A stretch of 64,000 nucleotides of DNA, from the NCBI GenBank assembly GCA_963664115.2, contig CAXWPJ010000002.1, positions 736,001 to 800,000 on the forward strand, given 5' to 3'. The notes beneath the pieces were generated by a model that made no database searches, was not told the DNA's origin, and was given only the letters and a program-made list of their open reading frames with translations. The stretch comes from Terriglobia bacterium. Lineage in GTDB: Bacteria > Acidobacteriota > Terriglobia > 20CM-2-55-15. Both the position numbers and the translations under genes were made by a program. Numbering within the stretch: the stretch's first letter is position 1; each line of letters starts with the position of its first letter. Of this stretch, positions 6,397-35,620 are shown in pieces.

Positions 6397-6456
6397 CTTT
6401 TCCTCCTTTGGATCTGTTTTCTTTCCGCCAACCGGAGCGATCGGGCCGTGCCCTAC

Positions 6457-8313
6457 CTAGACCCAAAACAAGCGCATAACCAGTCCGCCGAGGCCCAGTT
6501 CGCGCCGATAGAATTCGAGGCATAGAATCCCGTTCCCGGATGGCCTGTTCCAGGTATCGAGTTTCTGTTGAATCTGTTTCAGTTCAGCCTCGCTGGTGTT
6601 GGACGGTTGACAGAAACCGGGACCTCGATCGCCCGGGCTCAGAGTCATGATCGGGTCAACATCGCAGAGGCTGACGCAACACATCCACCCCGCGGAACAA
6701 GACCGGCAACCACCGGTTCCAGGCCAGGATCCGGAACAGAATGCGCCGCCCGGTGCGCACGAGTTGGCACGGCACAAGCATGAAAGCGTTCAAGAAGGTT
6801 TTGAACTCCATGCGCAGCACGGTTTGCTTCTCAGCCTGATATTTTTGGCCCCAACGTCCGGTTTCGGGAAGCAGCAATGCAAACCACGCTTTCAGTGTCC
6901 AGGCCAGTGACGCGATCACCATGTAGGCCCAGTTGCTGGTCTGATCTCCGACCGGCATCCGCAACGCCTGAACGCCGTTCTTCAACTGCTCAATGAGATT
7001 CTCCTGATTGCACCGTTGATTGGCACGCATCACAATCTGGTCGGCCGGATCCGAACGGTTGGTAATGTAGAAGAAGTACCGGATGTCGTCAAACAACACC
7101 TGCTCTCCTTTGGCCACCGACAGATTCTTCCGCACCACGACGACACGGTAGTCCCGATCGCAGGCTCCGGGTCGATACCGAAACTCGGCCACATCCTCAC
7201 CCTGCAAGCGGATATTGTCGAAACCGCGCTGCCGAACGATCTCTTCCTTCACGTTGTCGGGACGTTGGCGCGGTTCGGTCGCCACGTCGTATTTCGCGGG
7301 CCGTTCCAGGCGCTTCCACTGGCGCGGCTCCAGTTCATCGGCCCGGGCCTTCAGGTTCGCCATCGCGTCAATCCCGAATATGAAACCCACCTGCTGGTCG
7401 TCCCATCCGTCCAGATGCCGGGTCTGGCTGAAGTCCGTGTCCCCGCGCAGCAGGATCTGGCGAAACCCCGCATGCCGGCACAATGCGATGGCTTGGTCGA
7501 ACCGGACCGCGGCTCCTTCATGCGACGGCCGGTTGCCGCTACGATTGACCAGATACAGCGGTTCGGCGGTGTTGGCCAGCGAGATCATCAGCGGGTGATA
7601 TCCCCACGTCCCGTCGTAGGCCACGTCCATCCCTTGCTTGCATTCCCCCGTGGTTTCGGCCAGTGTCCCGTCCGCGTCCAACACCGCTTCTTCGAAAAAC
7701 GCCGCCGGTTGCTGTCGCCAGACTCCGAGCCGGACTTGATTGGTTGCCTCCATCAGACACTCCACGTCGTCGGCCTCGAATCTCCGGCAGAAGTCTCCCG
7801 CCGTCGTCGGATCCGGAATCCGTTGCGCTCCCAGCGCATCCAGATACACCGCATCGTTGCGCCGCAGTTCGATGTCTTCCAGGCACGTTCCTCCGCTCAA
7901 GGCGTTGTAGGCGATGTTCAGCACGTGATCCGACTCGTGATACGGCAGGTGCCGCTTCAACACATGCACGCCCTTGTCGATGGCTTCGATCAGCCCGGTC
8001 CGCCGCGCCACCAGTTGCATCGTCCCGATACCACCAACCGATGTGCCCCGCGTCCGCTCTCCCATCTCGTACTGAATGTTGCTCGCCGAAAACATCGGCT
8101 CTACCTGATCCGTCCAATGCCGGTCCCCAAGCCGACGTTCGATTCGCCGCTTGCGGTTCCTCATGTTCTTGCGCGTATAATCGTTCATCTGAAATGCCTC
8201 CTTTTCCGAAGAATCTGTTCAAGGTTTTTTTCGCACGGAGAGGGGGCATTTCGGGTACTTCCGCTCTTATTGCACTATCATTTCCTCGTCAATCACGCTT
8301 GTTCAGGGCCTAG
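6457..8313 (-). mobile_element. IS1380-family insertion sequence
   Basis: Imperfect inverted ends ctagacccaaaacaagcg (6457) and cgcttgttcagggcctag (8313) enclosing the transposase. Confidence 0.75.
6656..8188 (-). CDS. IS1380-family DDE transposase
   Basis: 510 aa; LDADGT, GYHPL, LRGDTDF, ENLIEQLK motifs. Confidence 0.88.
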   Translation of the reverse strand: MNDYTRKNMRNRKRRIERRLGDRHWTDQVEPMFSASNIQYEMGERTRGTSVGGIGTMQLVARRTGLIEAIDKGVHVLKRHLPYHESDHVLNIAYNALSGGTCLEDIELRRNDAVYLDALGAQRIPDPTTAGDFCRRFEADDVECLMEATNQVRLGVWRQQPAAFFEEAVLDADGTLAETTGECKQGMDVAYDGTWGYHPLMISLANTAEPLYLVNRSGNRPSHEGAAVRFDQAIALCRHAGFRQILLRGDTDFSQTRHLDGWDDQQVGFIFGIDAMANLKARADELEPRQWKRLERPAKYDVATEPRQRPDNVKEEIVRQRGFDNIRLQGEDVAEFRYRPGACDRDYRVVVVRKNLSVAKGEQVLFDDIRYFFYITNRSDPADQIVMRANQRCNQENLIEQLKNGVQALRMPVGDQTSNWAYMVIASLAWTLKAWFALLLPETGRWGQKYQAEKQTVLRMEFKTFLNAFMLVPCQLVRTGRRILFRILAWNRWLPVLFRGVDVLRQPLRC

Positions 8314-8317
8314 AGCA

Positions 8318-9798: not shown

Positions 9799-10018
9799 CG
9801 CCAGGCCCATCATCGCAGACCCGCTCCCGTCTCAACTCCCCATCGACCTGCAGTTCCGCTCAATCATGAAGTCTGAAAACCTACTTTATCCATAGCTCCA
9901 CCATTGCGGCTTCACACCGGCCGCGCCTTTCAAATTCTGTTATCGAAATTGTCGCGGTAGAAACCGATCGGCAGGTCCTGCGACATTGTGCGCCGCCCCA
10001 CTTCCGATCAACACTAGA

Positions 10019-10101
10019 GATTTCTCAGGACTTGACCTCGAAAATCAGGGCACCGGCACCCGCTCGCGCAGCTCTTGGAACCAGTTCAGGACTATGTTGA
10101 T
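10019..10101. repeat. Array junction copy 2 (right arm plus C-terminal remnant)
   Basis: gatttctcaggacttgacctcgaaaatcagggcaccggcacc...; reverse INIVLNWFQELRERVPVP*. Confidence 0.85.
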
Positions 10102-13959: not shown

Positions 13960-14204
13960 CATCCCATCCTTACCCAAGAGCAAGGCATCTCGTAATGGCC
14001 GAGTTGAGTTCTGGATTTCATTATTTAATGTGCACCGAAACGAGCCGTGAAAATCTCGGTAAAGAATACTAAGGGAGGAAGTTAGGTGCTATTAAATTCT
14101 CAAACATTAAATTCTAAAATCCTGACAAACGACCTTCTCGGACTGTTAGAAAAGGTCCTAAAAACGGGGTTCTCAAGGTCCGAGAAGATGATTTCTCGGG
14201 ACTT
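13960..14204. repeat. Degenerate kinase N-terminal remnant, promoter region and junction palindrome copy 3
   Basis: ctcgtaatggccgagttg near 13990; ttctcaaggtccgagaagatgatttctcgggactt at 14170-14204. Confidence 0.8.
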
Positions 14205-14231
14205 AAGAATGGTGAGATCACTGAGAGAGGC

Positions 14232-15685: not shown

Positions 15686-17248
15686 TTAGGCCCCGCCCTC
15701 CAGCGCAGCCTGTTGCTGCATTGCAGCCGGTCCGACGATCCGCTCAAAATCGGCATTCAGCCCCGGCTGACCGTGAATGGGGACATGCGTCGTAACGTCC
15801 AAATTCAGCCGCCTAATGTTGTTATACAACGCAACCGCGTTGGCGCCGACATTTGCTGGTGGCTGTGCACCGGCAGGCGGCGGACTCCAGAGATCCGCGT
15901 TAATCAGAATCTGCTCTTCCGGCAAATAGGCGATCAGCATATCTGCCGCGTGATTGAGATTTTGCACGTTAAAGAGAAGAAGCGTGCGATCTCCATCACT
16001 GATGAAATGCCGGTCCGTGACGGTTTCCAGCGCGACCGGTCCGGGCCCAGTGGTGGCGAGCGGATTCCGGGATAGCGTGTCGGGACTTAAGGTCCGTATC
16101 TGCGACGCAAAGACCGCGTCCCTAAAGAAATCCTCGTTGCTTTCATGCGTAACCACGGTCACGCCGTGAGCGACATAGGTCCGCGCACCGCCTAGATGGT
16201 CCCAATGGTGATGGGTAGTGACTAGATAGCGGATGGCTTTACCCGGAATAAGCCTTTTAATTTCGGCAATCACGGGGAGTGAGCGCGCTTCATTCTGCGG
16301 AGCGTCGACGACGGTGACAAAATCATCGAACTCAATCGCCACGCTATTATGCGAACCACCAGCCATGAGCCACACGCCGTCGGCAACTTCCTGCGCTGCT
16401 ACATTGACCTGTGGCTCCGGCGCGTAGCGTACGCCGTCAGGAACCGTCAGGGCGGCGCCGGCGACATTAGCACTTGCTTCACCTACTTCAAGATTTAGCC
16501 AGTTCATTCCCGGCCGGGCCGTCAACAGATGATCGCCACGGTGGCCGTGAAACAGGAACGGAAACATTATTCCATTGCCGATGTCCTGCCATTCCGCATA
16601 GCGGATCTCTATCTGCATATCGCCCATAACAGGATTAGGAATCTGCGTGATAAGGCGCTCCATCAAGTTTTCGTCGTTGAATTCGCCCGAAACGCGGTAA
16701 CCCATGGTCGTAAATGCGACGACCTTTAAAGTGCGATCCTCGGAGGCCACGTAACGGTCTACGACGGTTACATCGTCGGCTGCCAGCGCCGATTTGATAA
16801 ATCCATGCGGGCTGATTGCGATCATGAATTTGCCAAGCTCCGCAGTTGAAGTGGCTTGCGCAGTGGGTTCTCCGTCGTTGTTCAGCGTCCAGGCATAGTC
16901 GCCGCTTATGAAACCCAAATTCCGCCTTTCGCCGATAATGGGTGATCTGCCGCCGCCGCGCGCGGGATAGTCGCCCTGAACGCGAACAAATTCTTCCCGC
17001 GACGAACCGGAAGAATAATCAATGGTCATGTCGTAGCTCTGCAAGACATGGCGCGGCCAGTCTTCGCCGTCGGCAAAATTCTGTCCCACCGCGCCCATCC
17101 AGCCCGAGCCCGAATATTGGACCGAATTTACCGAACTCGCGCCGATGGCGTTATCCGCCGCTTCCAAAAAGCTTGCTGCATCCTGAGCAGCTGCCGGCCC
17201 GGCCATCAAAGCCGAAGCAACCAGCCATATCCCTAGTTTGTTTCTCAT
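15686..17248 (-). CDS. Secreted MBL-fold metallo-hydrolase (cargo)
   Basis: Signal peptide, THHHWDHLGG, HAADML, PIHG; paralog of 28776-30338. Confidence 0.85.
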   Translation of the reverse strand: MRNKLGIWLVASALMAGPAAAQDAASFLEAADNAIGASSVNSVQYSGSGWMGAVGQNFADGEDWPRHVLQSYDMTIDYSSGSSREEFVRVQGDYPARGGGRSPIIGERRNLGFISGDYAWTLNNDGEPTAQATSTAELGKFMIAISPHGFIKSALAADDVTVVDRYVASEDRTLKVVAFTTMGYRVSGEFNDENLMERLITQIPNPVMGDMQIEIRYAEWQDIGNGIMFPFLFHGHRGDHLLTARPGMNWLNLEVGEASANVAGAALTVPDGVRYAPEPQVNVAAQEVADGVWLMAGGSHNSVAIEFDDFVTVVDAPQNEARSLPVIAEIKRLIPGKAIRYLVTTHHHWDHLGGARTYVAHGVTVVTHESNEDFFRDAVFASQIRTLSPDTLSRNPLATTGPGPVALETVTDRHFISDGDRTLLLFNVQNLNHAADMLIAYLPEEQILINADLWSPPPAGAQPPANVGANAVALYNNIRRLNLDVTTHVPIHGQPGLNADFERIVGPAAMQQQAALEGGA

Positions 17249-17400: not shown

Positions 17401-17616
17401 TCACGTCATTCCTAGATTGCACGAGCCCTTGCCCGCCTCCCGCAGTCGCTGAGCCTGCTCGCGGTCAAAGATTCGCCGAGGCCGTCCAGAGGGTTTGCCT
17501 TCCTTCCTGGCACGTTCCAACCTGTCGGTGGCGCGGTAGGCCTCGCCCACACCCCCTTTACCGAGTGGGCCGGTGATCTCGTAGGGACCGAGTTTTGTGC
17601 CTCTCGCAAGGGCCAT
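17401..17616 (-). pseudogene. Kinase N-terminal remnant fused to resolvase-like C-terminal fragment
   Basis: MALARGTKLGPYEITGPLGKGGVGEAYRATD then LERARKEGKPSGRPRRIFD (serine-resolvase hinge-like). Confidence 0.65.
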
Positions 17617-17879
17617 GAACTCTCTACCTCACTACTGTCGCTTGTAAACTGAAAAAGCTGGAGAAAGTCTATAGAACGAACGGGTTGGAAGCAACGATTG
17701 GAATCAGCAGGATTCTCAACGTCCGACAAGATGATCTATGAAAGGGGATGTCAAGAGAAACAGCTCCCCGATGGCCGGCCAGACGGACACTTTTGTCGTG
17801 ACAGCCAGCCCCTCTACCGTTATGTGAAGCCCTGGTTCCGGCAATCCGGAGCGAAATCGTACATCTTTAAGACGGTCGA

Positions 17880-18100
17880 TTCAGAAACTGAACAGCATAT
17901 GGGACGGCATGTGCCGACCATGGATCTATCTGAGCCTCGAAGGCTATCGCTGTTTCAGGTCGTGCGAGGGGGGATAGAGATTTAAAAGTGTCCTCTGGAC
18001 GTATCCAGGGACCACATCTTGTGCAGATCCTCACCCTCGATCCTCAGTTGTTCCGACTCCGTCTAACGACTCAGTACGGCTCTACCGGTCACGGATCGAA
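17880..18100 (-). ncRNA. Putative bridge/seek RNA of the IS1111 element (boundaries approximate)
   Basis: Two guide-hairpin-guide units: ACAAGATG/TAAATC match the target; ACAGCGAT/ATAGATC match the circle junction. Confidence 0.65.
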
Positions 18101-18105
18101 ACGGC

Positions 18106-19170
18106 TTATGTTGTCATCCAGCTCAGTTTCTTTGGATCGAACGATTCTCCTTTCTTCCAAAGCGTCAGCACCAGTGCGGCGATCTTACGGGCCAGAGTGA
18201 CCCGCGCCATTTCCTCCCGCATCCCACGCATCTGGAGACTCTCCAGATAAATCCGATACGGCTCGCTTTGTTTTCCCGATGCCGCGGCTGAGAAGAACAC
18301 CGACTTCAATCGCCGGTTGCAGTTCGCATTCAATCCGCGTGTGGCCACCGGTTTCCTCCGTCGCACCACACGTCCACTCTGCATCTCATACTCCGCGCTC
18401 ATGTGGGTCACCACACCCAGGCCACTGTAGCTCCAGAACTGCGGTGTCGTGCGGAATCGGTACGGCGTGTCCACGATGGCGACGATCTGTGCCGCCCGAA
18501 CCGGTCCCAGTTGTGGAATGGTCTCGAGCAGTTTCACCGCCTCATGGTGCCGGCCCTCCACTCGCACCGCTTTTCTGGATTGTTTCCGCAGCAACTGGAC
18601 CTGGTCCAGTTCCGCATACAACCATCGGGCGCGCTGCCTCATCCCCGGCTCGGTCAGCTTCTCCAACCACTGTTCGCGCTGACTCGGCCGATAGACTCCG
18701 TCCTTCGGTGTCGGGATCCCCCGTCCCCGGTATATCGCTTTGATCCGCGACATCACCCGTTGCGTGTCCAACTGGAACGTGTCATAGGCCTGCACCAGTT
18801 GCTTCAATTCTCGCGTCGCTTCATGGCCGTGATACACCGAGCGCAACAGTCCCACCCGCAACAGCTCGGCCAGCTTCCGCGCATCCGGCTTATCCCCCTT
18901 CGACCCTTCTTGCATCCACTTGTTCTGTCGCGGATCGCACACCACCACCTCGCTCACCCACGGCCGGATCACTTCCGATAACCAGCCCGCTTGCGTGGTC
19001 TCCTCCAACCCCACGTGCATCGGCCCACTCAATCCCTCCAGCAGCCGTGTGATACTCCCCGCCTCGGTTTCCACGATCGTTTCAAACACCAGTTTGCCGC
19101 TCCCGTCTCTCACCGCAACCACCGTCGTTGCCTGGTGCACATCCATACCCATATACTTGTCTTGTTTCAT
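18106..19170 (-). CDS. IS110-family DEDD transposase/recombinase
   Basis: MGMDVH, GLEET, KGDKPDA, TIPQLGP, YSGL, ARKIA motifs. Confidence 0.92.
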   Translation of the reverse strand: MKQDKYMGMDVHQATTVVAVRDGSGKLVFETIVETEAGSITRLLEGLSGPMHVGLEETTQAGWLSEVIRPWVSEVVVCDPRQNKWMQEGSKGDKPDARKLAELLRVGLLRSVYHGHEATRELKQLVQAYDTFQLDTQRVMSRIKAIYRGRGIPTPKDGVYRPSQREQWLEKLTEPGMRQRARWLYAELDQVQLLRKQSRKAVRVEGRHHEAVKLLETIPQLGPVRAAQIVAIVDTPYRFRTTPQFWSYSGLGVVTHMSAEYEMQSGRVVRRRKPVATRGLNANCNRRLKSVFFSAAASGKQSEPYRIYLESLQMRGMREEMARVTLARKIAALVLTLWKKGESFDPKKLSWMTT

Positions 19171-19588
19171 CTCGAACGCTCCTTTTCTGGGATCAACGCT
19201 GTATACGTTGATCAGGTTGTTGAGTGAGTCTTCTCTCAACAACCCCCAGTCTAGGGGCGTCCTTTCATACTGCGATTTATCAGGACTTGACCCGGCATCT
19301 CTGTCTCCGCCGACTTCCCCGAAGCCGACTTTTGGGTCGTTAATGCTGCCCATTCCTAAACGCTAGGCGACTACTCATTACCTATGCAGTGAAACACCAC
19401 CAAACCCCTTTGAAATTTCGTCGTTACAAAGCGGCCAGCCCTCAGAAAACCCCCTTGCCCTGCACCTTAGGCTTCCGATAATCTGGCTGCTACAATAACG
19501 GGAGAGTAACCTGCGCTTGCTCAGGTTGACCTAATCGGGCCGAGGGCGCGATCCTTTTCGAGAACCGCGAGAACCGGAGGATTTCATC

Positions 19589-21094
19589 ATGAATTCAAGT
19601 CGAATTCCGCGACGGGACTTTCTGAAAGCCTGGGGAGCAGGAACCATGGCTCTTGCTTCGCCTGCAATGGGGCATTCGCTTCTCGCGGCTCAGGCTGGGT
19701 CGCAGGAAACCTATTCGCGTCCCGTGGGGCAGCGAGAGACGACTGTGGCGGAAGACATGGGGACGTGGATTGCGGCGCTTCGGTATGAGGACCTGCCGCC
19801 GGCGGTCGTGGAAAAGGCCAAGCGTGTATTGCTCGATACGGTCGGGTGCGCGCTGGGAGCGGTGGGTGCCGAACCGGTCCGCTTCGCGCAGCAAGCAGTC
19901 TTTCAGCAAGGGGGTCATCCGAGGTCGACCTTGATCGGGCTGGGCCGCAAAGTTTCCTGCGATCAGGCCGCGTTCCTGAACGGAATGGCGATCCGGTATC
20001 TCGATTTCAACGACTATGCACCTCCTGGGGGTCATCCCAGCATCAACGTAGCGCCGGCGCTGGCGGTGGCGGAAATGCGCAACCTGACGGGCAAGGACCT
20101 GCTGCTCGGCGTCACGATCGGCCACGAAGTGCATACCCGGCTCCTGGACGCCACGGAAGGAGGTTCCCTAAGCCGCGGTTGGGACCTGGGGACCATTACG
20201 ACCAATTACGCGTCCGCGGCGGTGGCCGCCAAACTGCTGGACCTCGACGCGTCCAAGATCGCCCATGCCATGGCGATTGCCGGCGCACACGGAAACACGC
20301 TCCGGGAAGTTCGCCGGGGGGCGATGCTCAGCGGCGGCGGAATGACTCCCTCGAAAGGGACCGCCGACCCCATGTCGGCGCGCAATGGAACCTTCGCGGT
20401 GTTTCTGGCGCAGGAGGGTATGACTTACCCGCTGACGATTCTCGAAGGCGTGTATGGGTTCGGAAACAATGTAACCGGGGAACTGCGAGAAGATATCCTG
20501 CGGAAGCGCACGGGTGATTTCCAGATTCTGCAGAGTGGCACCAAGATGTGGCCCTGCTTCCTCCATGGGCAGGGGCCGATCGCGGCAGCGATCGAGGTGC
20601 ACGGCCAGGGAGTGAATCCGGAAGAGATCGAGAGCATCACGGTACTGCTCAACGGGTCTGCGTATGAGAACCAGCAGGCCTACAACAAGGGTGAAATCAC
20701 GACTCGGGAGCAGGCCGACCATAGCATTCCGTATGTGGTGGCTAGGTCGCTTTTGGACGGTAATGTGAGCGTTGAGGACTTCGAAGAGAGCCGCTTCCGA
20801 GACCCACGGGCGATAGCTCTGGTAAATAAGACCACGCTCCGGTTAGAGCCTGCGCTAACGGTAGGCGCGTACGTCGAGGTAAGGCTTCGGAGTGGGGCAG
20901 CACATCGCTCGGAAGTGCCGCATCCGCCGGGCAGTATCCAAAATCCTGCGAGCGACGCAATGCTGATCGAAAAGTTCATGTCCCTAGCGGAAAGGCCCTT
21001 GGGTAGGGGACGTGCCGAATCCGCCGCCGAGGCACTCCTCTTCGTTGACCAGCTCTCCGAGCTCGGTCCGCTGCTGCAAGTTCTTACATCCTAG
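19589..21094 (+). CDS. MmgE/PrpD family protein with Tat signal (cargo)
   Basis: RRDFLK Tat motif; LLDTVGCA, RYLDFND, GHPS, KMWPC. Confidence 0.85.
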   Translation: MNSSRIPRRDFLKAWGAGTMALASPAMGHSLLAAQAGSQETYSRPVGQRETTVAEDMGTWIAALRYEDLPPAVVEKAKRVLLDTVGCALGAVGAEPVRFAQQAVFQQGGHPRSTLIGLGRKVSCDQAAFLNGMAIRYLDFNDYAPPGGHPSINVAPALAVAEMRNLTGKDLLLGVTIGHEVHTRLLDATEGGSLSRGWDLGTITTNYASAAVAAKLLDLDASKIAHAMAIAGAHGNTLREVRRGAMLSGGGMTPSKGTADPMSARNGTFAVFLAQEGMTYPLTILEGVYGFGNNVTGELREDILRKRTGDFQILQSGTKMWPCFLHGQGPIAAAIEVHGQGVNPEEIESITVLLNGSAYENQQAYNKGEITTREQADHSIPYVVARSLLDGNVSVEDFEESRFRDPRAIALVNKTTLRLEPALTVGAYVEVRLRSGAAHRSEVPHPPGSIQNPASDAMLIEKFMSLAERPLGRGRAESAAEALLFVDQLSELGPLLQVLTS

Positions 21095-21861: not shown

Positions 21862-21965
21862 AATTCTCAACGTCCGACAAGATTTATCGGGACTTGACCT
21901 CGAAAATCAGGGAACCGGGACACGTTCCTTCAGTTCTTCAAACCAGTTTTGAACGATGTTGATCT
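21862..21965. repeat. Array junction copy 8
   Basis: aattctcaacgtccgacaagatttatcgggacttgacc plus reverse QINIVQNWFEELKERVPVP*. Confidence 0.9.
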
Positions 21966-28775: not shown

Positions 28776-30338
28776 CTAACGAGCCGGATCACGGACTACG
28801 TTGCGCAGGTCCTCGTACGTTCCGACATCGCCATGAATGCCAACGATTGTTTGCACGTTCAAATTCAATGCCTCGATGCCTTCGAGGAGCTCGCGCGGCA
28901 ACTCGCCCGGCCGTATGCTCCCCCCCTCGCGAGGGCTGACATGGTCCGCCTCGATCAGAATGCGTTCTCCTGGAAGATAAATGATCTGGTAATCGTCCGC
29001 GTGCGATGTCGCATATGGGTAAATTTCAATTTGTCGGCTCCCGTCGGTCAGGATCTTCGGTTCCGTGATCCCTTCGACGACGGCTGCATCCCGGCTCTGT
29101 TCCAAACGCTCCGCCCGGATGGTGTGCGGTGCTCTGGCGATGCGCTCATAGTGTGCTGCACTGATCGCCGGCGCGACAATCGTTGCCCCCGCTTCCGTGT
29201 ATGTCCGTATGCCGCCTGAGTGATCGTTGTGGAAATGGGTTGGAATAACGTAGCGGATCGGCTTCGTTGGAAAGCGCTGTCTGATCGCCGCGAGAACGCT
29301 TTCTGAACGCTCTTCATAGAGCGGCGCCTCAACGACCACAAGATGGTCCTGAAACTCGATGAGCACGCTGTTGTGCGACGTTCCCCGGATATGAATGACG
29401 CCGTCGGCGAGCGGCACGAACTCCACCGGTATGTCCCTGCCAAAATCCAGGTAGCTGACATTCATCGCCAGACGGCGCAAGAGCCATTGCGAGGGGATCG
29501 GCTCTCCTTCGATGTCTTGACGCCGTAGGGCCTCAGGCACCAGGAACGTTTCGGGCGAGAGCTCAACATTGTGGCGCACGGACTGGAGGCGTTCGCTCTG
29601 CAGCAGTTGCCCGTTGATTTCATGTCGCAGGTCGAAAGGCACCATGATGCCATCCACAGACTGCCAGTCCGCGTAACGCAGGGTGTACCGGCTATCCCCG
29701 TAGATGGGGTCGTGTTCGAGGATGTCGACTTGTGTAAGGAGCTTAGTCCGGACATCCAGGTAGATTTGAAATTCCTCACCGTCGTTGTCAAAGCTCAGGA
29801 CGCGCTGTGGCAGCCCCTCCACTTCGGTATCGGGGAGCCGCGTCAGGCTCGCCCGTCCCAACGCCGTGAGCACGAGGGCATTGGCTGAACGCTGTTCTTC
29901 CCGTATGCGGCTCGCCAGTCGACCCGGATGTAAACGCGTCGTTTGAGAAGTTCCGCCTTCGATGCTTTCTTGCAGCAGCCCGTCGTCTCCATCAATAATT
30001 TCAATATAGCGAACAGGCACCTCCCTTGGATAAATCGTCCTGCCGTTCCACTCCAAGCGGAGTCGTGGGCTTGCAATCTCCCGAGTCAGCGTGTAGCGAA
30101 AATCTGCCACACGTCGAGCCTGGCCACCCGGACGCAATGCCTGCTCGGGCTCAAATTGCTGTCCCGAGCCTTCCAGCACTTGGTTTATCAGGGCGTGCAG
30201 TGCCTCTACTCCACCCATCGCATGTGCGGTCTCTTCCAATATCGCGGTGGCTTCCCCGTTTTGTGCCAGTGCCGGAATATTTGCTACTGAAAGAACCAAA
30301 AGTAGCAGGCTGAATCGAATCAATTTGCGCGTCCACAT
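28776..30338 (-). CDS. Secreted MBL-fold metallo-hydrolase (cargo); ORF open upstream into kinase start at 30452
   Basis: THFHNDHSGG, SHADD, GIHG; signal peptide from MWTRK. Confidence 0.85.
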   Translation of the reverse strand: MWTRKLIRFSLLLLVLSVANIPALAQNGEATAILEETAHAMGGVEALHALINQVLEGSGQQFEPEQALRPGGQARRVADFRYTLTREIASPRLRLEWNGRTIYPREVPVRYIEIIDGDDGLLQESIEGGTSQTTRLHPGRLASRIREEQRSANALVLTALGRASLTRLPDTEVEGLPQRVLSFDNDGEEFQIYLDVRTKLLTQVDILEHDPIYGDSRYTLRYADWQSVDGIMVPFDLRHEINGQLLQSERLQSVRHNVELSPETFLVPEALRRQDIEGEPIPSQWLLRRLAMNVSYLDFGRDIPVEFVPLADGVIHIRGTSHNSVLIEFQDHLVVVEAPLYEERSESVLAAIRQRFPTKPIRYVIPTHFHNDHSGGIRTYTEAGATIVAPAISAAHYERIARAPHTIRAERLEQSRDAAVVEGITEPKILTDGSRQIEIYPYATSHADDYQIIYLPGERILIEADHVSPREGGSIRPGELPRELLEGIEALNLNVQTIVGIHGDVGTYEDLRNVVRDPAR

Positions 30339-30399
30339 AGCGTGTGCTCCCGGCCGCTGTTCGACCTGTGGAAGGCCAAGGAGAAACCGACCTCCGCCT

Positions 30400-30598
30400 C
30401 TGCCCATGGCGGAAAGGATCTCGTAGTGGCCGAGTTTGGTGCCAGATTCCATGTTTAAAGTGTGCCGAAACGAAACGTGAAAAAGTTGGATAAATCTAAC
30501 TACAGGTGGGGGTTATAAGCAAGGAAGTTGTGAGCCCGCGTATCACGGTTAATTCTCAACGTCCGCGAAGATGATTTGTCAGGACTTGAACTCAAGAA
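30400..30598. repeat. Kinase N-terminal remnant, promoter and junction palindrome copy 10
   Basis: [20 protein letters not shown]; TTGCTT-18-TAGATT; aattctcaacgtccgcgaagatgatttgtcaggacttga. Confidence 0.88.
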
Positions 30599-33375: not shown

Positions 33376-35376
33376 CTATTTAAGGACCGCGCTGACTTCG
33401 GCTTGCACGACGAGGCGGTCTGCGTCGTCCTGGAGAAGGTATCGTCCGCGCACCAATCGGGCGGCGGCTGCGGACACTTTCGCGACGTAGTTCTCGTGGC
33501 TCCCGTAGCGTTCTTCGAGCGACGGTCTCGGATCACCGACTGCGAGTCGCTCTGCCCTGGTCCTGGCGAATGGAATGTAGCCACCGGCATTGGTCCGAAT
33601 ATGGCCCTTGTAGAACCCACTGGCAGTCGTATTCCAGCCCGTGTACGTTCCCAGAGGAACCTGGTGGAGCACGCTGGCCACTCCACTGACCTCGTTCCCA
33701 TCGGCGTCGACCGTTGGCACTACTGTGGGAAGCACTTGGCGAATCGGAGGAGGCTGGATCGTGATGACTCCCGAGAGGTCGTTGTAATCGAACTGCGTTC
33801 CGAAGTCATATTCGTAAAGTGGGTTGAGAATTCCGTCCGGTATCGGCACACCTGGGATCGTTGGAAATCCAAGCGCGGCCTGTGTAGGTAACGTCAGTTC
33901 TCCTCGATCGAGTCGCGGATATTGACTCGGTGGAGGGAGCGTACCCTGCACGACCCAATCCACTAACGCAGTCTGCAACGCACGCAATGTGTCGCTGGAA
34001 GGATTCGGGTTCGGTGCCAGGTCGCAGCAGGCGTTAGGCTCTGGGTTTGGATCGAATCCGCCGGGTCCACCCCCATGCCTCACTCCCGGGAAGTAATACC
34101 GTCGGACATTCGATGGCAAGGGAATATCGCGGTCAGCCCGAGTGCCCACCAAGTTCGGAGACGCACGCAAGTTGTAGAACTCCGCCGAGCCGAACGTTTC
34201 CACGATCTTGGGACAGGTTTCCGTAGCCTCGCACCGATCGAGCAATCCCGCCGAGGCATGGCCTCGCGCTTCGTCGGCATAATTGGCCCACCAGACAACG
34301 CCATCACTCCCGGCTTCGTACATCGCAGCCGCCCCACCGGGAGCTGCGAATCGGATATTCATTGCCAGGAGGCGAGCGGCACGTTCGGGGTTGCTGCCGT
34401 CGAAAACAATTCGCCCAGCCTCGTCCTGATTGAAGCCCAGGTGAATGAAGCTTCGAAGGAAGTTCCCGGACTGCGAGTTGCCCTGGCTTACCGTCCAGTT
34501 GATCCTTCCGCGCAGAACATTCGGAGCCCCCGCATCGTCCTGGGTTCCGTAGCGCAGATAGGAATTCAGATCTCGCGTTGCAGCAAATCCGATTCCGTGG
34601 ACCTTGGGATCCTTGGCAGTGTAGACAAGCTCGTACAGAAAGGCGGGATTGAATCCGCCCTGGATACAGATCTTTCTCGGATCGGGTGTGCCTGGAAAAG
34701 GGCTCCGACTGCAATCGGCAAAGGCCCACTCTGTGCTGTATAGAGGGATGACAGCACCATGTTCTGAGGCTCGGCGGGTCAGGGTGGCTTGACCCGTATC
34801 GAGCGTGACCGGATCGGCGGTCCCCACAACCCGACCGCGAATTATTGGCAAGGTCGTCGTGTTCGGAGGCATGTCGCTGAACCTGGCGAGCACGGGCCCC
34901 GTGATACTGGATCCATCGGAGTTCCTGGCTATCGGAACAAAAAGCGTCTCCCTACCATCGGCGGGCTCGAGGTCTCCCTGCCACCCACTGGCGACAAGGA
35001 CGTGGCCTTGATTTCGAGCATCGGCGAGGAACCCACCACCGGTCAGATTGATCCGGCCGCGGTTCGGGACGAAATAGAGAAGCGCTCCACTGGCTTTCGC
35101 CATGTCGGTAGGTTTGATGATGGTGAACGTCGCCACGTATTCCACCATCCCTCGCCCGTTGCGTGGAGCAAATTCGAGATCGGTAATGATGGCGTTCAGT
35201 GGGTGCCTGGGGTCCACTTCGCCATAGGCGTGGCCTGTGAGTTTTTCGTATCCATCATCGCCTCTGAGCGTCTCCGTGTGTTCTACTACGAGCCGCGTGA
35301 TCTCAGCCGGGGTGGGATTCGCCACCGTGAGGATTGCCACAGCCACGAGCGTGGCCCTGAAGAGTCGAACCTGCAT
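33376..35376 (-). CDS. Secreted alpha/beta-hydrolase-domain protein (cargo)
   Basis: Signal peptide, GNSQSG nucleophile-elbow-like motif, [12 protein letters not shown]-terminus. Confidence 0.85.
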
Positions 35377-35399
35377 GCGTTACCTCCTTGATTTCCTGA

Positions 35400-35620
35400 G
35401 CGGGCCCAGGAATTCGTAGTGGCCGAGTTTGGTGCCGGAATCCATGTTTAAAGTGTGTCGCTGAAAGGTCTCTGAAAAACTCGGTAAACGATACTAGAGG
35501 TGGGTGTTAGAGGCAATCAAAAGGTCAGGCCCTGATAAACGACATTGTCAGACATTGAAAAACCTCAGTAATTTGCCCAATTCTCAACGTCCGACAAGAT
35601 GATTTGTCAGGACTTGACGT
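35400..35620. repeat. Kinase N-terminal remnant, promoter and junction palindrome copy 11
   Basis: [16 protein letters not shown]; TTGCCT-17-TATCGT; ttctcaacgtccgacaagatgatttgtcaggacttgac. Confidence 0.88.

Follow-up and report, generated by a model that had tools for sequence, protein, structure and literature searches.

The window, a stretch of 64,000 nucleotides from the genome of a Terriglobia bacterium (the source genome, G000), contains an array of palindromic sites, one of which is split by an insertion sequence of the IS110 family. The segment to its left holds a metallo-beta-lactamase-fold gene and, beside the site, the start of a Ser/Thr kinase gene, and the segment to its right holds an MmgE/PrpD gene. 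The features at the insertion are as follows (positions in the window).

15686–17248, minus strand: metallo-beta-lactamase-fold gene (PF00753), in the segment left of the element
17401–17616, minus strand: Ser/Thr kinase gene-start stub by the site, the usual cassette leader
17713–17734, plus strand: left half of the split site, XerC-like arm (17719–17729) and spacer bases 1–5
17733–17734, plus strand: 2-nt core GA, copy 1, spacer bases 4–5
17735–19273, minus strand: IS110-family element with IS1111-type layout, 1539 bp without the core (from copy/empty-site comparison, the family core and a consensus fold)
17737–17745, no strand: right subterminal inverted repeat, 9 bp
18106–19170, minus strand: gene for a DEDD recombinase/transposase of 354 aa, of a divergent lineage (PF01548, PF02371)
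19261–19269, no strand: left subterminal inverted repeat, 9 bp
19274–19275, plus strand: 2-nt core GA, copy 2
19276–19290, plus strand: right half of the split site, last spacer base and second arm (19277–19287)
19589–21094, plus strand: MmgE/PrpD gene (PF03972, PF19305), in the segment right of the element

An earlier note on this DNA had proposed that cutting out 17736–19276 (1541 bp) regenerates an intact palindrome, and it does so exactly; the 9-bp subterminal inverted repeats that it described are likewise present and perfect. Its statement that GAT flanks both ends is right for GA, which is common to both, while the third base, T, is coincidental. Of the 34 family members that could be parsed in full, 33 have a 2-nt core at both ends (60 of 94 end sets were dropped for want of a parsed end, loop or 12-nt flank), and a 3-nt core was discarded since a third base is shared by just 10 of 36 members. 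Because the family-wide core is 2 nt, we take the element proper to be 17735–19273 plus one GA core, of which the 1541-bp cut is an equivalent register.

The source genome contains seven copies, six of them intact and one interrupted, and an end remnant; coming from a single genome, these are not independent samples. Their ends fall at one identical base of the palindrome (7/7 on one side and 8/8 on the other), and insertion strictly within the palindrome, as the earlier note had it, is thus upheld at all eight places, as well as in two relatives: a 94% metagenome relative (L125) whose sole visible flank is the palindrome site with the same spacer flank, and a 98% partial copy in a congener (G002) that has the same spacer bases, after which the left arm holds what seems to be the end of another IS1111-type element. 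The copy at contig position C11:1098 has an empty twin at C6:45070, with 300/300 bases matching on each side. The interrupted copy is broken by an 1857-bp element whose counterpart in the window scores as IS1380; this IS1380-family element (window 6456–8314) has about 80 near-identical copies across the assembly.

Sequencing runs that cover this stretch are, where labelled, sponge metagenomes. The element's read depth is roughly 8–12 times that of its flanks in four runs, which fits many copies and gives no copy count, and three short contigs of RNA run X19 lie on the element, which is no proof of transcription. No circle junction of the element occurs in the assembled contigs of seven public runs, such contigs being prone to drop rare forms. 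One X5 contig skips 1541 bases with a short side of only 21 bases, and another empty site could explain it.

Both transposase domains score above their curated cut-offs (PF01548, 54.6 bits; PF02371, 36.1 bits), which places the element in the IS110 family. Its layout is that of the IS1111 group: subterminal inverted repeats of 7–17 bp, as given in the available text of PMC11208160 (here 9 bp and perfect), and a longer non-coding region lying 3′ of the transposase gene (371 nt downstream versus 103 nt upstream). The protein is a different matter. In the GL-P----S(t)G motif the P is absent and SG is displaced by an insert; the NCBIfam equivalog NF033542 matches over its full length at 122.3 bits (E 2.5e-35) against a cut-off of 140; identity is 23% to an ISKpn4-like protein and at most 29% to any plasmid match; and comparison with IS4321 gives an E of 0.22 and with ISKpn4 no match. 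In a tree of 14 rows, with two IS110-type references only and without ISEc11 and IS621, the transposase forms its own clade (100/100) on a long branch, with a placement value of 71/72. Because the NCBIfam cut-off is missed, identity does not exceed 29% and the motif is incomplete, we describe the element as having an IS1111-type layout rather than as a member of that group; the earlier designation as IS1111-type stands for the layout, and the protein is a deep separate lineage. RNA-guided elements of this kind are known, and the present one is a new, divergent case.

The long 3′ region contains a predicted bridge RNA, and a putative promoter element lies near the right end.

17749–17754, minus strand: predicted outward-facing -35 hexamer
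[quoted passage not shown]
17923–17929, minus strand: left donor guide ATAGATC; in 45 of 49 homolog regions its last 3 nt are identical to the right junction
17946–17953, minus strand: candidate right donor guide, 7 of 8 bases matching the element's left end, by eye
17979–17985, minus strand: left target guide TTAAATC, matching the target flank
18015–18022, minus strand: right target guide ACAAGATG, matching the target flank

Covariation argues for a non-coding RNA with target and donor guides, since 12 of the 28 pairs in the consensus fold of the 25 homologs show two-sided change; a single-sequence fold of the whole 3′ region is weak (z -1.7), the two loops having emerged from the alignment only, and Rfam gives no match on the element's 3′ part (L167). 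In the predicted RNA, the first loop carries 8-nt and 7-nt matches to the two sides of the target and the second carries matches to the element's ends, and the complement of the top strand comes before that of the bottom strand, the order given for IS1111 elements in the available part of PMC11187229. Over 19 distinct target loops, the right guide scores 6.8/8 against its own flank and the left guide 6.4/8, versus means of 4.4 and 4.3 and maxima of 5.6 and 5.4 among 5000 permutations of guide and flank. The element's guide also spells particular site variants, and these are the ones occupied in the source genome: TTA at 8/8 occupied versus 32/128 empty sites (p 3e-5), and ACAA at 6/7 versus 31/128 (p 0.002). 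Targeting is thus likely steered by the element's own predicted bridge RNA. For ISPpu10 a target stem-loop is an added determinant, according to the accessible portion of 10.64898/2026.03.19.712850, and such a determinant could apply to this element too. Over the circle junction the predicted -35 would join a weak -10, with 17 nt between them. About 150 nt of further structured sequence extends from the donor loop to the right end (window 17755–17910), and a gene-less right end of a sister element lies at C12:531100–531495 of the source genome, its different guides matching its own unrelated flank.

The search for homologs covered 401 genomes of the class (matches in 51, a tally that includes the unpublished G253, G349 and G389, on which no claim rests), metagenomes (49 loci) and the genus. 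Most of them, the earlier note had predicted, should sit in the same motif at the same base, and this is not the case: none of 12 homologs at 64–70% identity with both flanks parsed is in a palindrome site, and their guides match other targets. Because these relatives sit elsewhere with changed guides, the targeting is reprogrammed and not family-wide. A branch at 46–49% identity occupies the same site type (L042, L109 and L110 in G243, and L115 in G347), inserting from the opposite strand and one base further along. Relatives with unrelated targets separate this branch from the present element in the tree, so that targeting of this site type probably arose at least twice.

The palindrome itself recurs through the window and the genome.

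8637–40389, plus strand: site array, nine intact GATGAT-class sites in direct repeat (starts 8637, 14173, 15040, 21318, 27940, 30556, 35584, 36461 and 40356)
14115–14148 and 35525–35558, minus strand: two CGT-class sites within the array

The site pattern matches 10 times in the window versus 0 in 100 shuffles, and with the spacer left free it finds 170 sites in 45 clusters genome-wide (171 raw matches, one removed as a self-match on the other strand). Each site consists of an 11-bp arm, a 6-bp spacer and an 11-bp arm, the layout of dif and pdif sites. The left arm agrees at 9/11 positions with the XerC arm of two acidobacterial dif predictions published in PMC3025954, in the part of that source available, and at 8/11 with that of the genome's own dif, and is thus of XerC type; the second arm agrees with XerD arms at only 5–7/11 and is not. 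The palindrome was considered as the chromosomal dif and ruled out, a canonical single dif lying elsewhere. The likely chromosomal dif is at C2:108118–108145 (minus strand), at or near a GC-skew switch.

Two spacer classes are distinguished by the triplet adjoining the second arm. With the spacer free, 157 of the 170 sites end in GAT (134) or CGT (23). Among 36 sites at loci of other families, GAC or CGT closes the spacer in 32, and the first spacer triplet takes 12 values. Orientation follows class: neighbouring sites of mixed class are opposed in 24/24 cases and GATGAT neighbours are direct in 70/72, which differs from the alternation of pdif sites. Of 401 genomes of the class, 34 contain the pattern and eight have at least five copies (the control gave one match), and a stricter pattern occurs in none of the 274 genomes that represent other classes in a sample of the phylum. 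Phage-borne copies with their own integrase were sought in viral_contigs, with 0 matches.

What lies between the sites is frequently tied to a Ser/Thr kinase gene. Many segments open with its first codons and close with its last; 67 of 128 GATGAT sites come after the end of a kinase gene, and 18 of 23 CGT sites are followed by a kinase start. Genome-wide there are 52 start stubs and 108 end stubs versus 9 long kinase frames, and one intact kinase gene stands between two direct sites (C10:248478–251193). At window positions 28776–30452 and 33376–35450, cargo genes are fused to the kinase first codons or lie right behind them. A tyrosine recombinase gene (C5:52076–53248, L007) is flanked by two inverted CGT-class sites, each of which leads outward into a kinase start.

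Comparison of site flanks shows that similarity frequently stops at the site. Only one flank, a long one, is alike in 37 site pairs, with identity ending at the site, and both flanks are alike in 10; about 10 site pairs fall in segmental duplicates. Two of 102 site-to-site segments (1249 bp at 99.8% and 349 bp at 96.8%) have different neighbours on both sides, and four inner-arm positions differ between the two contexts of the 1249-bp segment. Pairs that share the left flank (11 pairs, some of them duplicates) show agreement of just 64% at arm positions -10 and -3, the background being 38% and 56%. These arm differences count against a clean spacer crossover, because a strict one predicts none, and in this small sample the crossover is not confined to the spacer as at dif and pdif. 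Exchange falls within the roughly 35-bp site, and is not assignable to the spacer itself.

Several other mobile elements occupy the same site. The second IS1111-type element has ISKpn4 as its closest relative (46.5%; for example C5:47878–49315, L238), and 7 of 8 left ends follow the spacer and the first four bases of the second arm; Rfam gives no match on it. In the window its right end is at about 15237, and a simple 2-nt repeat does not account for its core. IS30-family ends adjoin an arm in 21 of 29 cases; these elements are of at least two types and lie in spacers of both classes (for example C2:317962–319218, L250). An ORF-less group II intron of 685 nt sits at one left-arm position in 3/3 copies (C12:19504–20172 [L240], and near C12:17035 and C12:564490), with a 7-nt candidate exon-binding match, and a similar 5′ end is seen in L125. 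IS91-like elements with a tyrosine recombinase/integrase gene have 3 of 12 ends in a site, starting directly after the spacer and TT (C3:2882, C10:411529 and C12:570248; also window about 10000–10020 and L070); six identical IS91-like ends follow a related half-site (by eye), and IS91-like elements may integrate via these sites. The range of occupant families supports the site as a stable, attractive target, and alone does not establish its function.

The same distinction applies to the earlier proposal that a dedicated parasite marks the palindrome as a functional site. The argument is weak alone, because some 13 nt of guide pairing account for the targeting, which in itself attests to abundance rather than function, and because IS110-family elements use plain repeats as well, such as conserved codons in IS3 elements (PMC11187229, in its available text). 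The functional conclusion looks right on other evidence, since flanks are exchanged, spacer classes are kept across families and several unrelated occupants use the site.

We propose that two processes meet at this locus. Every copy of the element interrupts the 6-bp spacer and has a 2-nt core, and its predicted guides fit target and ends; as for IS621 and ISEc11, the element would excise as a circle whose junction promoter would drive the transposase and the RNA, and RNA-DNA pairing of about 13 nt would select the site and its preferred variants. This part of the scheme we regard as very probable, on the insertions observed and on analogy. For the site, which has the 11-6-11 layout, two spacer classes and about 170 clustered copies where shared flanks stop, a tyrosine recombinase – most simply host XerC/XerD – would recombine sites of the same class and so move site-to-site segments, often framed by the kinase gene's first and last codons, and junction migration through near-identical arms would blur the crossover point. 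The genes for XerC and XerD are present, and Xer-type recombination of the site is marginally favoured. An abundant, intergenic and spreading site would have several mobile elements tuned to it, and an inserted element, by splitting the spacer, would block that site until it excised. Taken together, we find it rather probable that this is an IS110-family element at one base of a dif-like palindrome, likely an Xer-type site that exchanges gene blocks.

Among other explanations, the palindrome could be a non-catalytic repeat, either an operator or the end of a kinase module, with homologous or slippage recombination within about 35 bp moving the segments and mobile elements targeting it merely because it is common. 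Crossovers that appear spread over the entire site agree with this, and with so many sites at kinase ends and starts, copies could ride a duplicated kinase module. We nevertheless think it unlikely, because the same core, with both spacer classes, is also found in other families, across those 34 genomes of the class, a free spacer that keeps its class triplet and a strict orientation by class are unexpected of an operator, and the dif-like arm is left unexplained.

If the site is recombined enzymatically, the enzyme need not be the host's. Clear orthologs across G000, G002, G003, G307, G331 and G399, six genomes with several sites, were seen for no tyrosine recombinases other than XerC and XerD, in a survey of the tyrosine class only that covered 20 of 27 G002 matches and all but three in G331 and G399. 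XerC and XerD are present in nearly all bacteria, and their sharing is therefore weak evidence. The poor XerD arm, the IS91-like ends exactly in the site or after its related half-site, and the bracketing of the C5 gene by two sites would all suit a dedicated mobile tyrosine recombinase acting in trans, either the IS91-like integrase or the recombinase at C5:52189. Such an enzyme in place of host XerCD is quite improbable, however: the C5 recombinase was rejected as the dedicated enzyme, no match for it having turned up in G002 or G003, which have 67 and 28 sites, and no IS91-type integrase is among the matches listed for G003, G307 and G331.

Least probable is that the site acts as a folded single strand, like attC or REP, through an integron integrase or a single-strand transposase. 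In its favour, one copy gives a stem that has two staggered bulges when folded (z -1.8 and -2.0), an integron integrase is encoded in the genome, the closest relative of the second element, ISKpn4, targets attC, and outer arm bases vary between families while the palindrome is kept (by eye). Against it, variable stem positions pair no more than independent ones (0.41 versus 0.44; 0.76 versus 0.76), another copy folds no better than shuffles (z -0.1 and 0.5), no site lies within 3 kb of the integron integrase, G003's 12 matches include no integron integrase, and the whole site does not travel with the segment.

With Xer-type recombination as the preferred account of the site, its closest analogue is dif/pdif, and not attC or REP. 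The pdif and chromosomal dif modules of Acinetobacter, as described in the available parts of PMC13141974 and PMC12907356, also have 11-6-11 sites around one or a few genes and many extras beside the true dif, with module shuffling, clustering in islands, and spacer classes that are more variable next to the XerC-like arm. The present sites differ in having a non-canonical XerD arm, arms lengthened by a 4–6 bp palindrome, mostly direct neighbours, about 170 chromosomal copies, kinase stubs and crossover beyond the spacer. Because they fail on the XerD arm, the alternation and the spacer crossover, we do not file them as pdif, although they work like a dif-module system; the target is probably an Xer-like module site.

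Like integron attC with its IS1111-attC elements, this is an arrayed cassette boundary site occupied by IS1111-type elements, and attC is also known to receive group II introns. attC is defined by its core motifs; the present site, unlike attC, is without these, without pairing covariation and without an adjacent integrase. The hallmarks of REP and MITE sequences are a terminal tetranucleotide or target duplication and a cognate transposase, and flank exchange and the spacer classes argue against that assignment.

Insertion sequences that home to Xer-type sites are represented by the IS1202 family (the ISAjo2/ISAba32 group; 10.1101/2022.12.17.520857 and PMC10132070, both in part). Those are DDE elements that insert 5 bp from the XerC arm, duplicating 5 bp and keeping the site intact (10.1101/2022.12.17.520857), whereas the present element is RNA-guided, enters the spacer and splits the site. 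With the seekRNA or bridge RNA elements of the IS1111 group (ISEc11, ISKpn4 and ISPa11), as far as the available text of PMC11187229 and PMC11208160 describes them, it shares subterminal inverted repeats, a long 3′ non-coding region, a 2-nt core, a leading guide that complements the top strand, natural reprogramming among relatives and the use of one position of a repeated site. Their targets are attC, REP or a transposon end, whereas here the target is a dif-like site, and the present transposase differs from theirs in being a deep separate lineage with the motif P missing and an insert before SG. No report of an RNA-guided element aimed at an Xer-type spacer was found in the literature searched, with the target tables of two 2024 papers, subscription papers and ISfinder outside the search, and none of Xer-like module sites in Acidobacteriota, subscription papers again lying outside.

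By itself the element adds one more to the known bridge-RNA systems, its use being that of a divergent recombinase for which many guide variants exist in nature. Xer-site module systems are known mainly from Acinetobacter, and the target is the more important part. A wider reading, which we hold tentatively and would put at somewhat below even, is that it belongs to an undescribed Xer-like cassette system in one acidobacterial class: a site derived from dif, its second arm altered and its two spacer classes mutually incompatible, expanded to about 170 copies in this sponge-associated lineage, shuffling genes within direct-repeat arrays that have no adjacent integrase gene, and pursued by a guild of hunters, including two bridge-RNA lineages that would have been reprogrammed separately and on opposite strands, whose scarless insertion into the spacer could lock and unlock cassettes. 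If this is true, such a system working across the chromosome, with its altered arms and two classes of spacer, would offer a further route of gene shuffling, and how a host recombinase copes with many non-dif sites without damage to the chromosome becomes testable. Guide sequences could also reveal hidden recombination sites in other genomes.

Some sites depart from the usual arrangement. Odd spacers of 3 bp, and also of 5, 7 or 9 bp, are found at window 21863–21900 and at C12:552676, C9:1129216, C2:255662, C2:1000438 and C9:1144079, and are possible excision footprints. Back-to-back pairs of a CGT and a GATGAT site, 58–59 or 148 bp apart, lie at window 14115–14206 and 35525–35617 and in L057 and L070; such pairs recur in another family, and could be empty modules or fold-back substrates.
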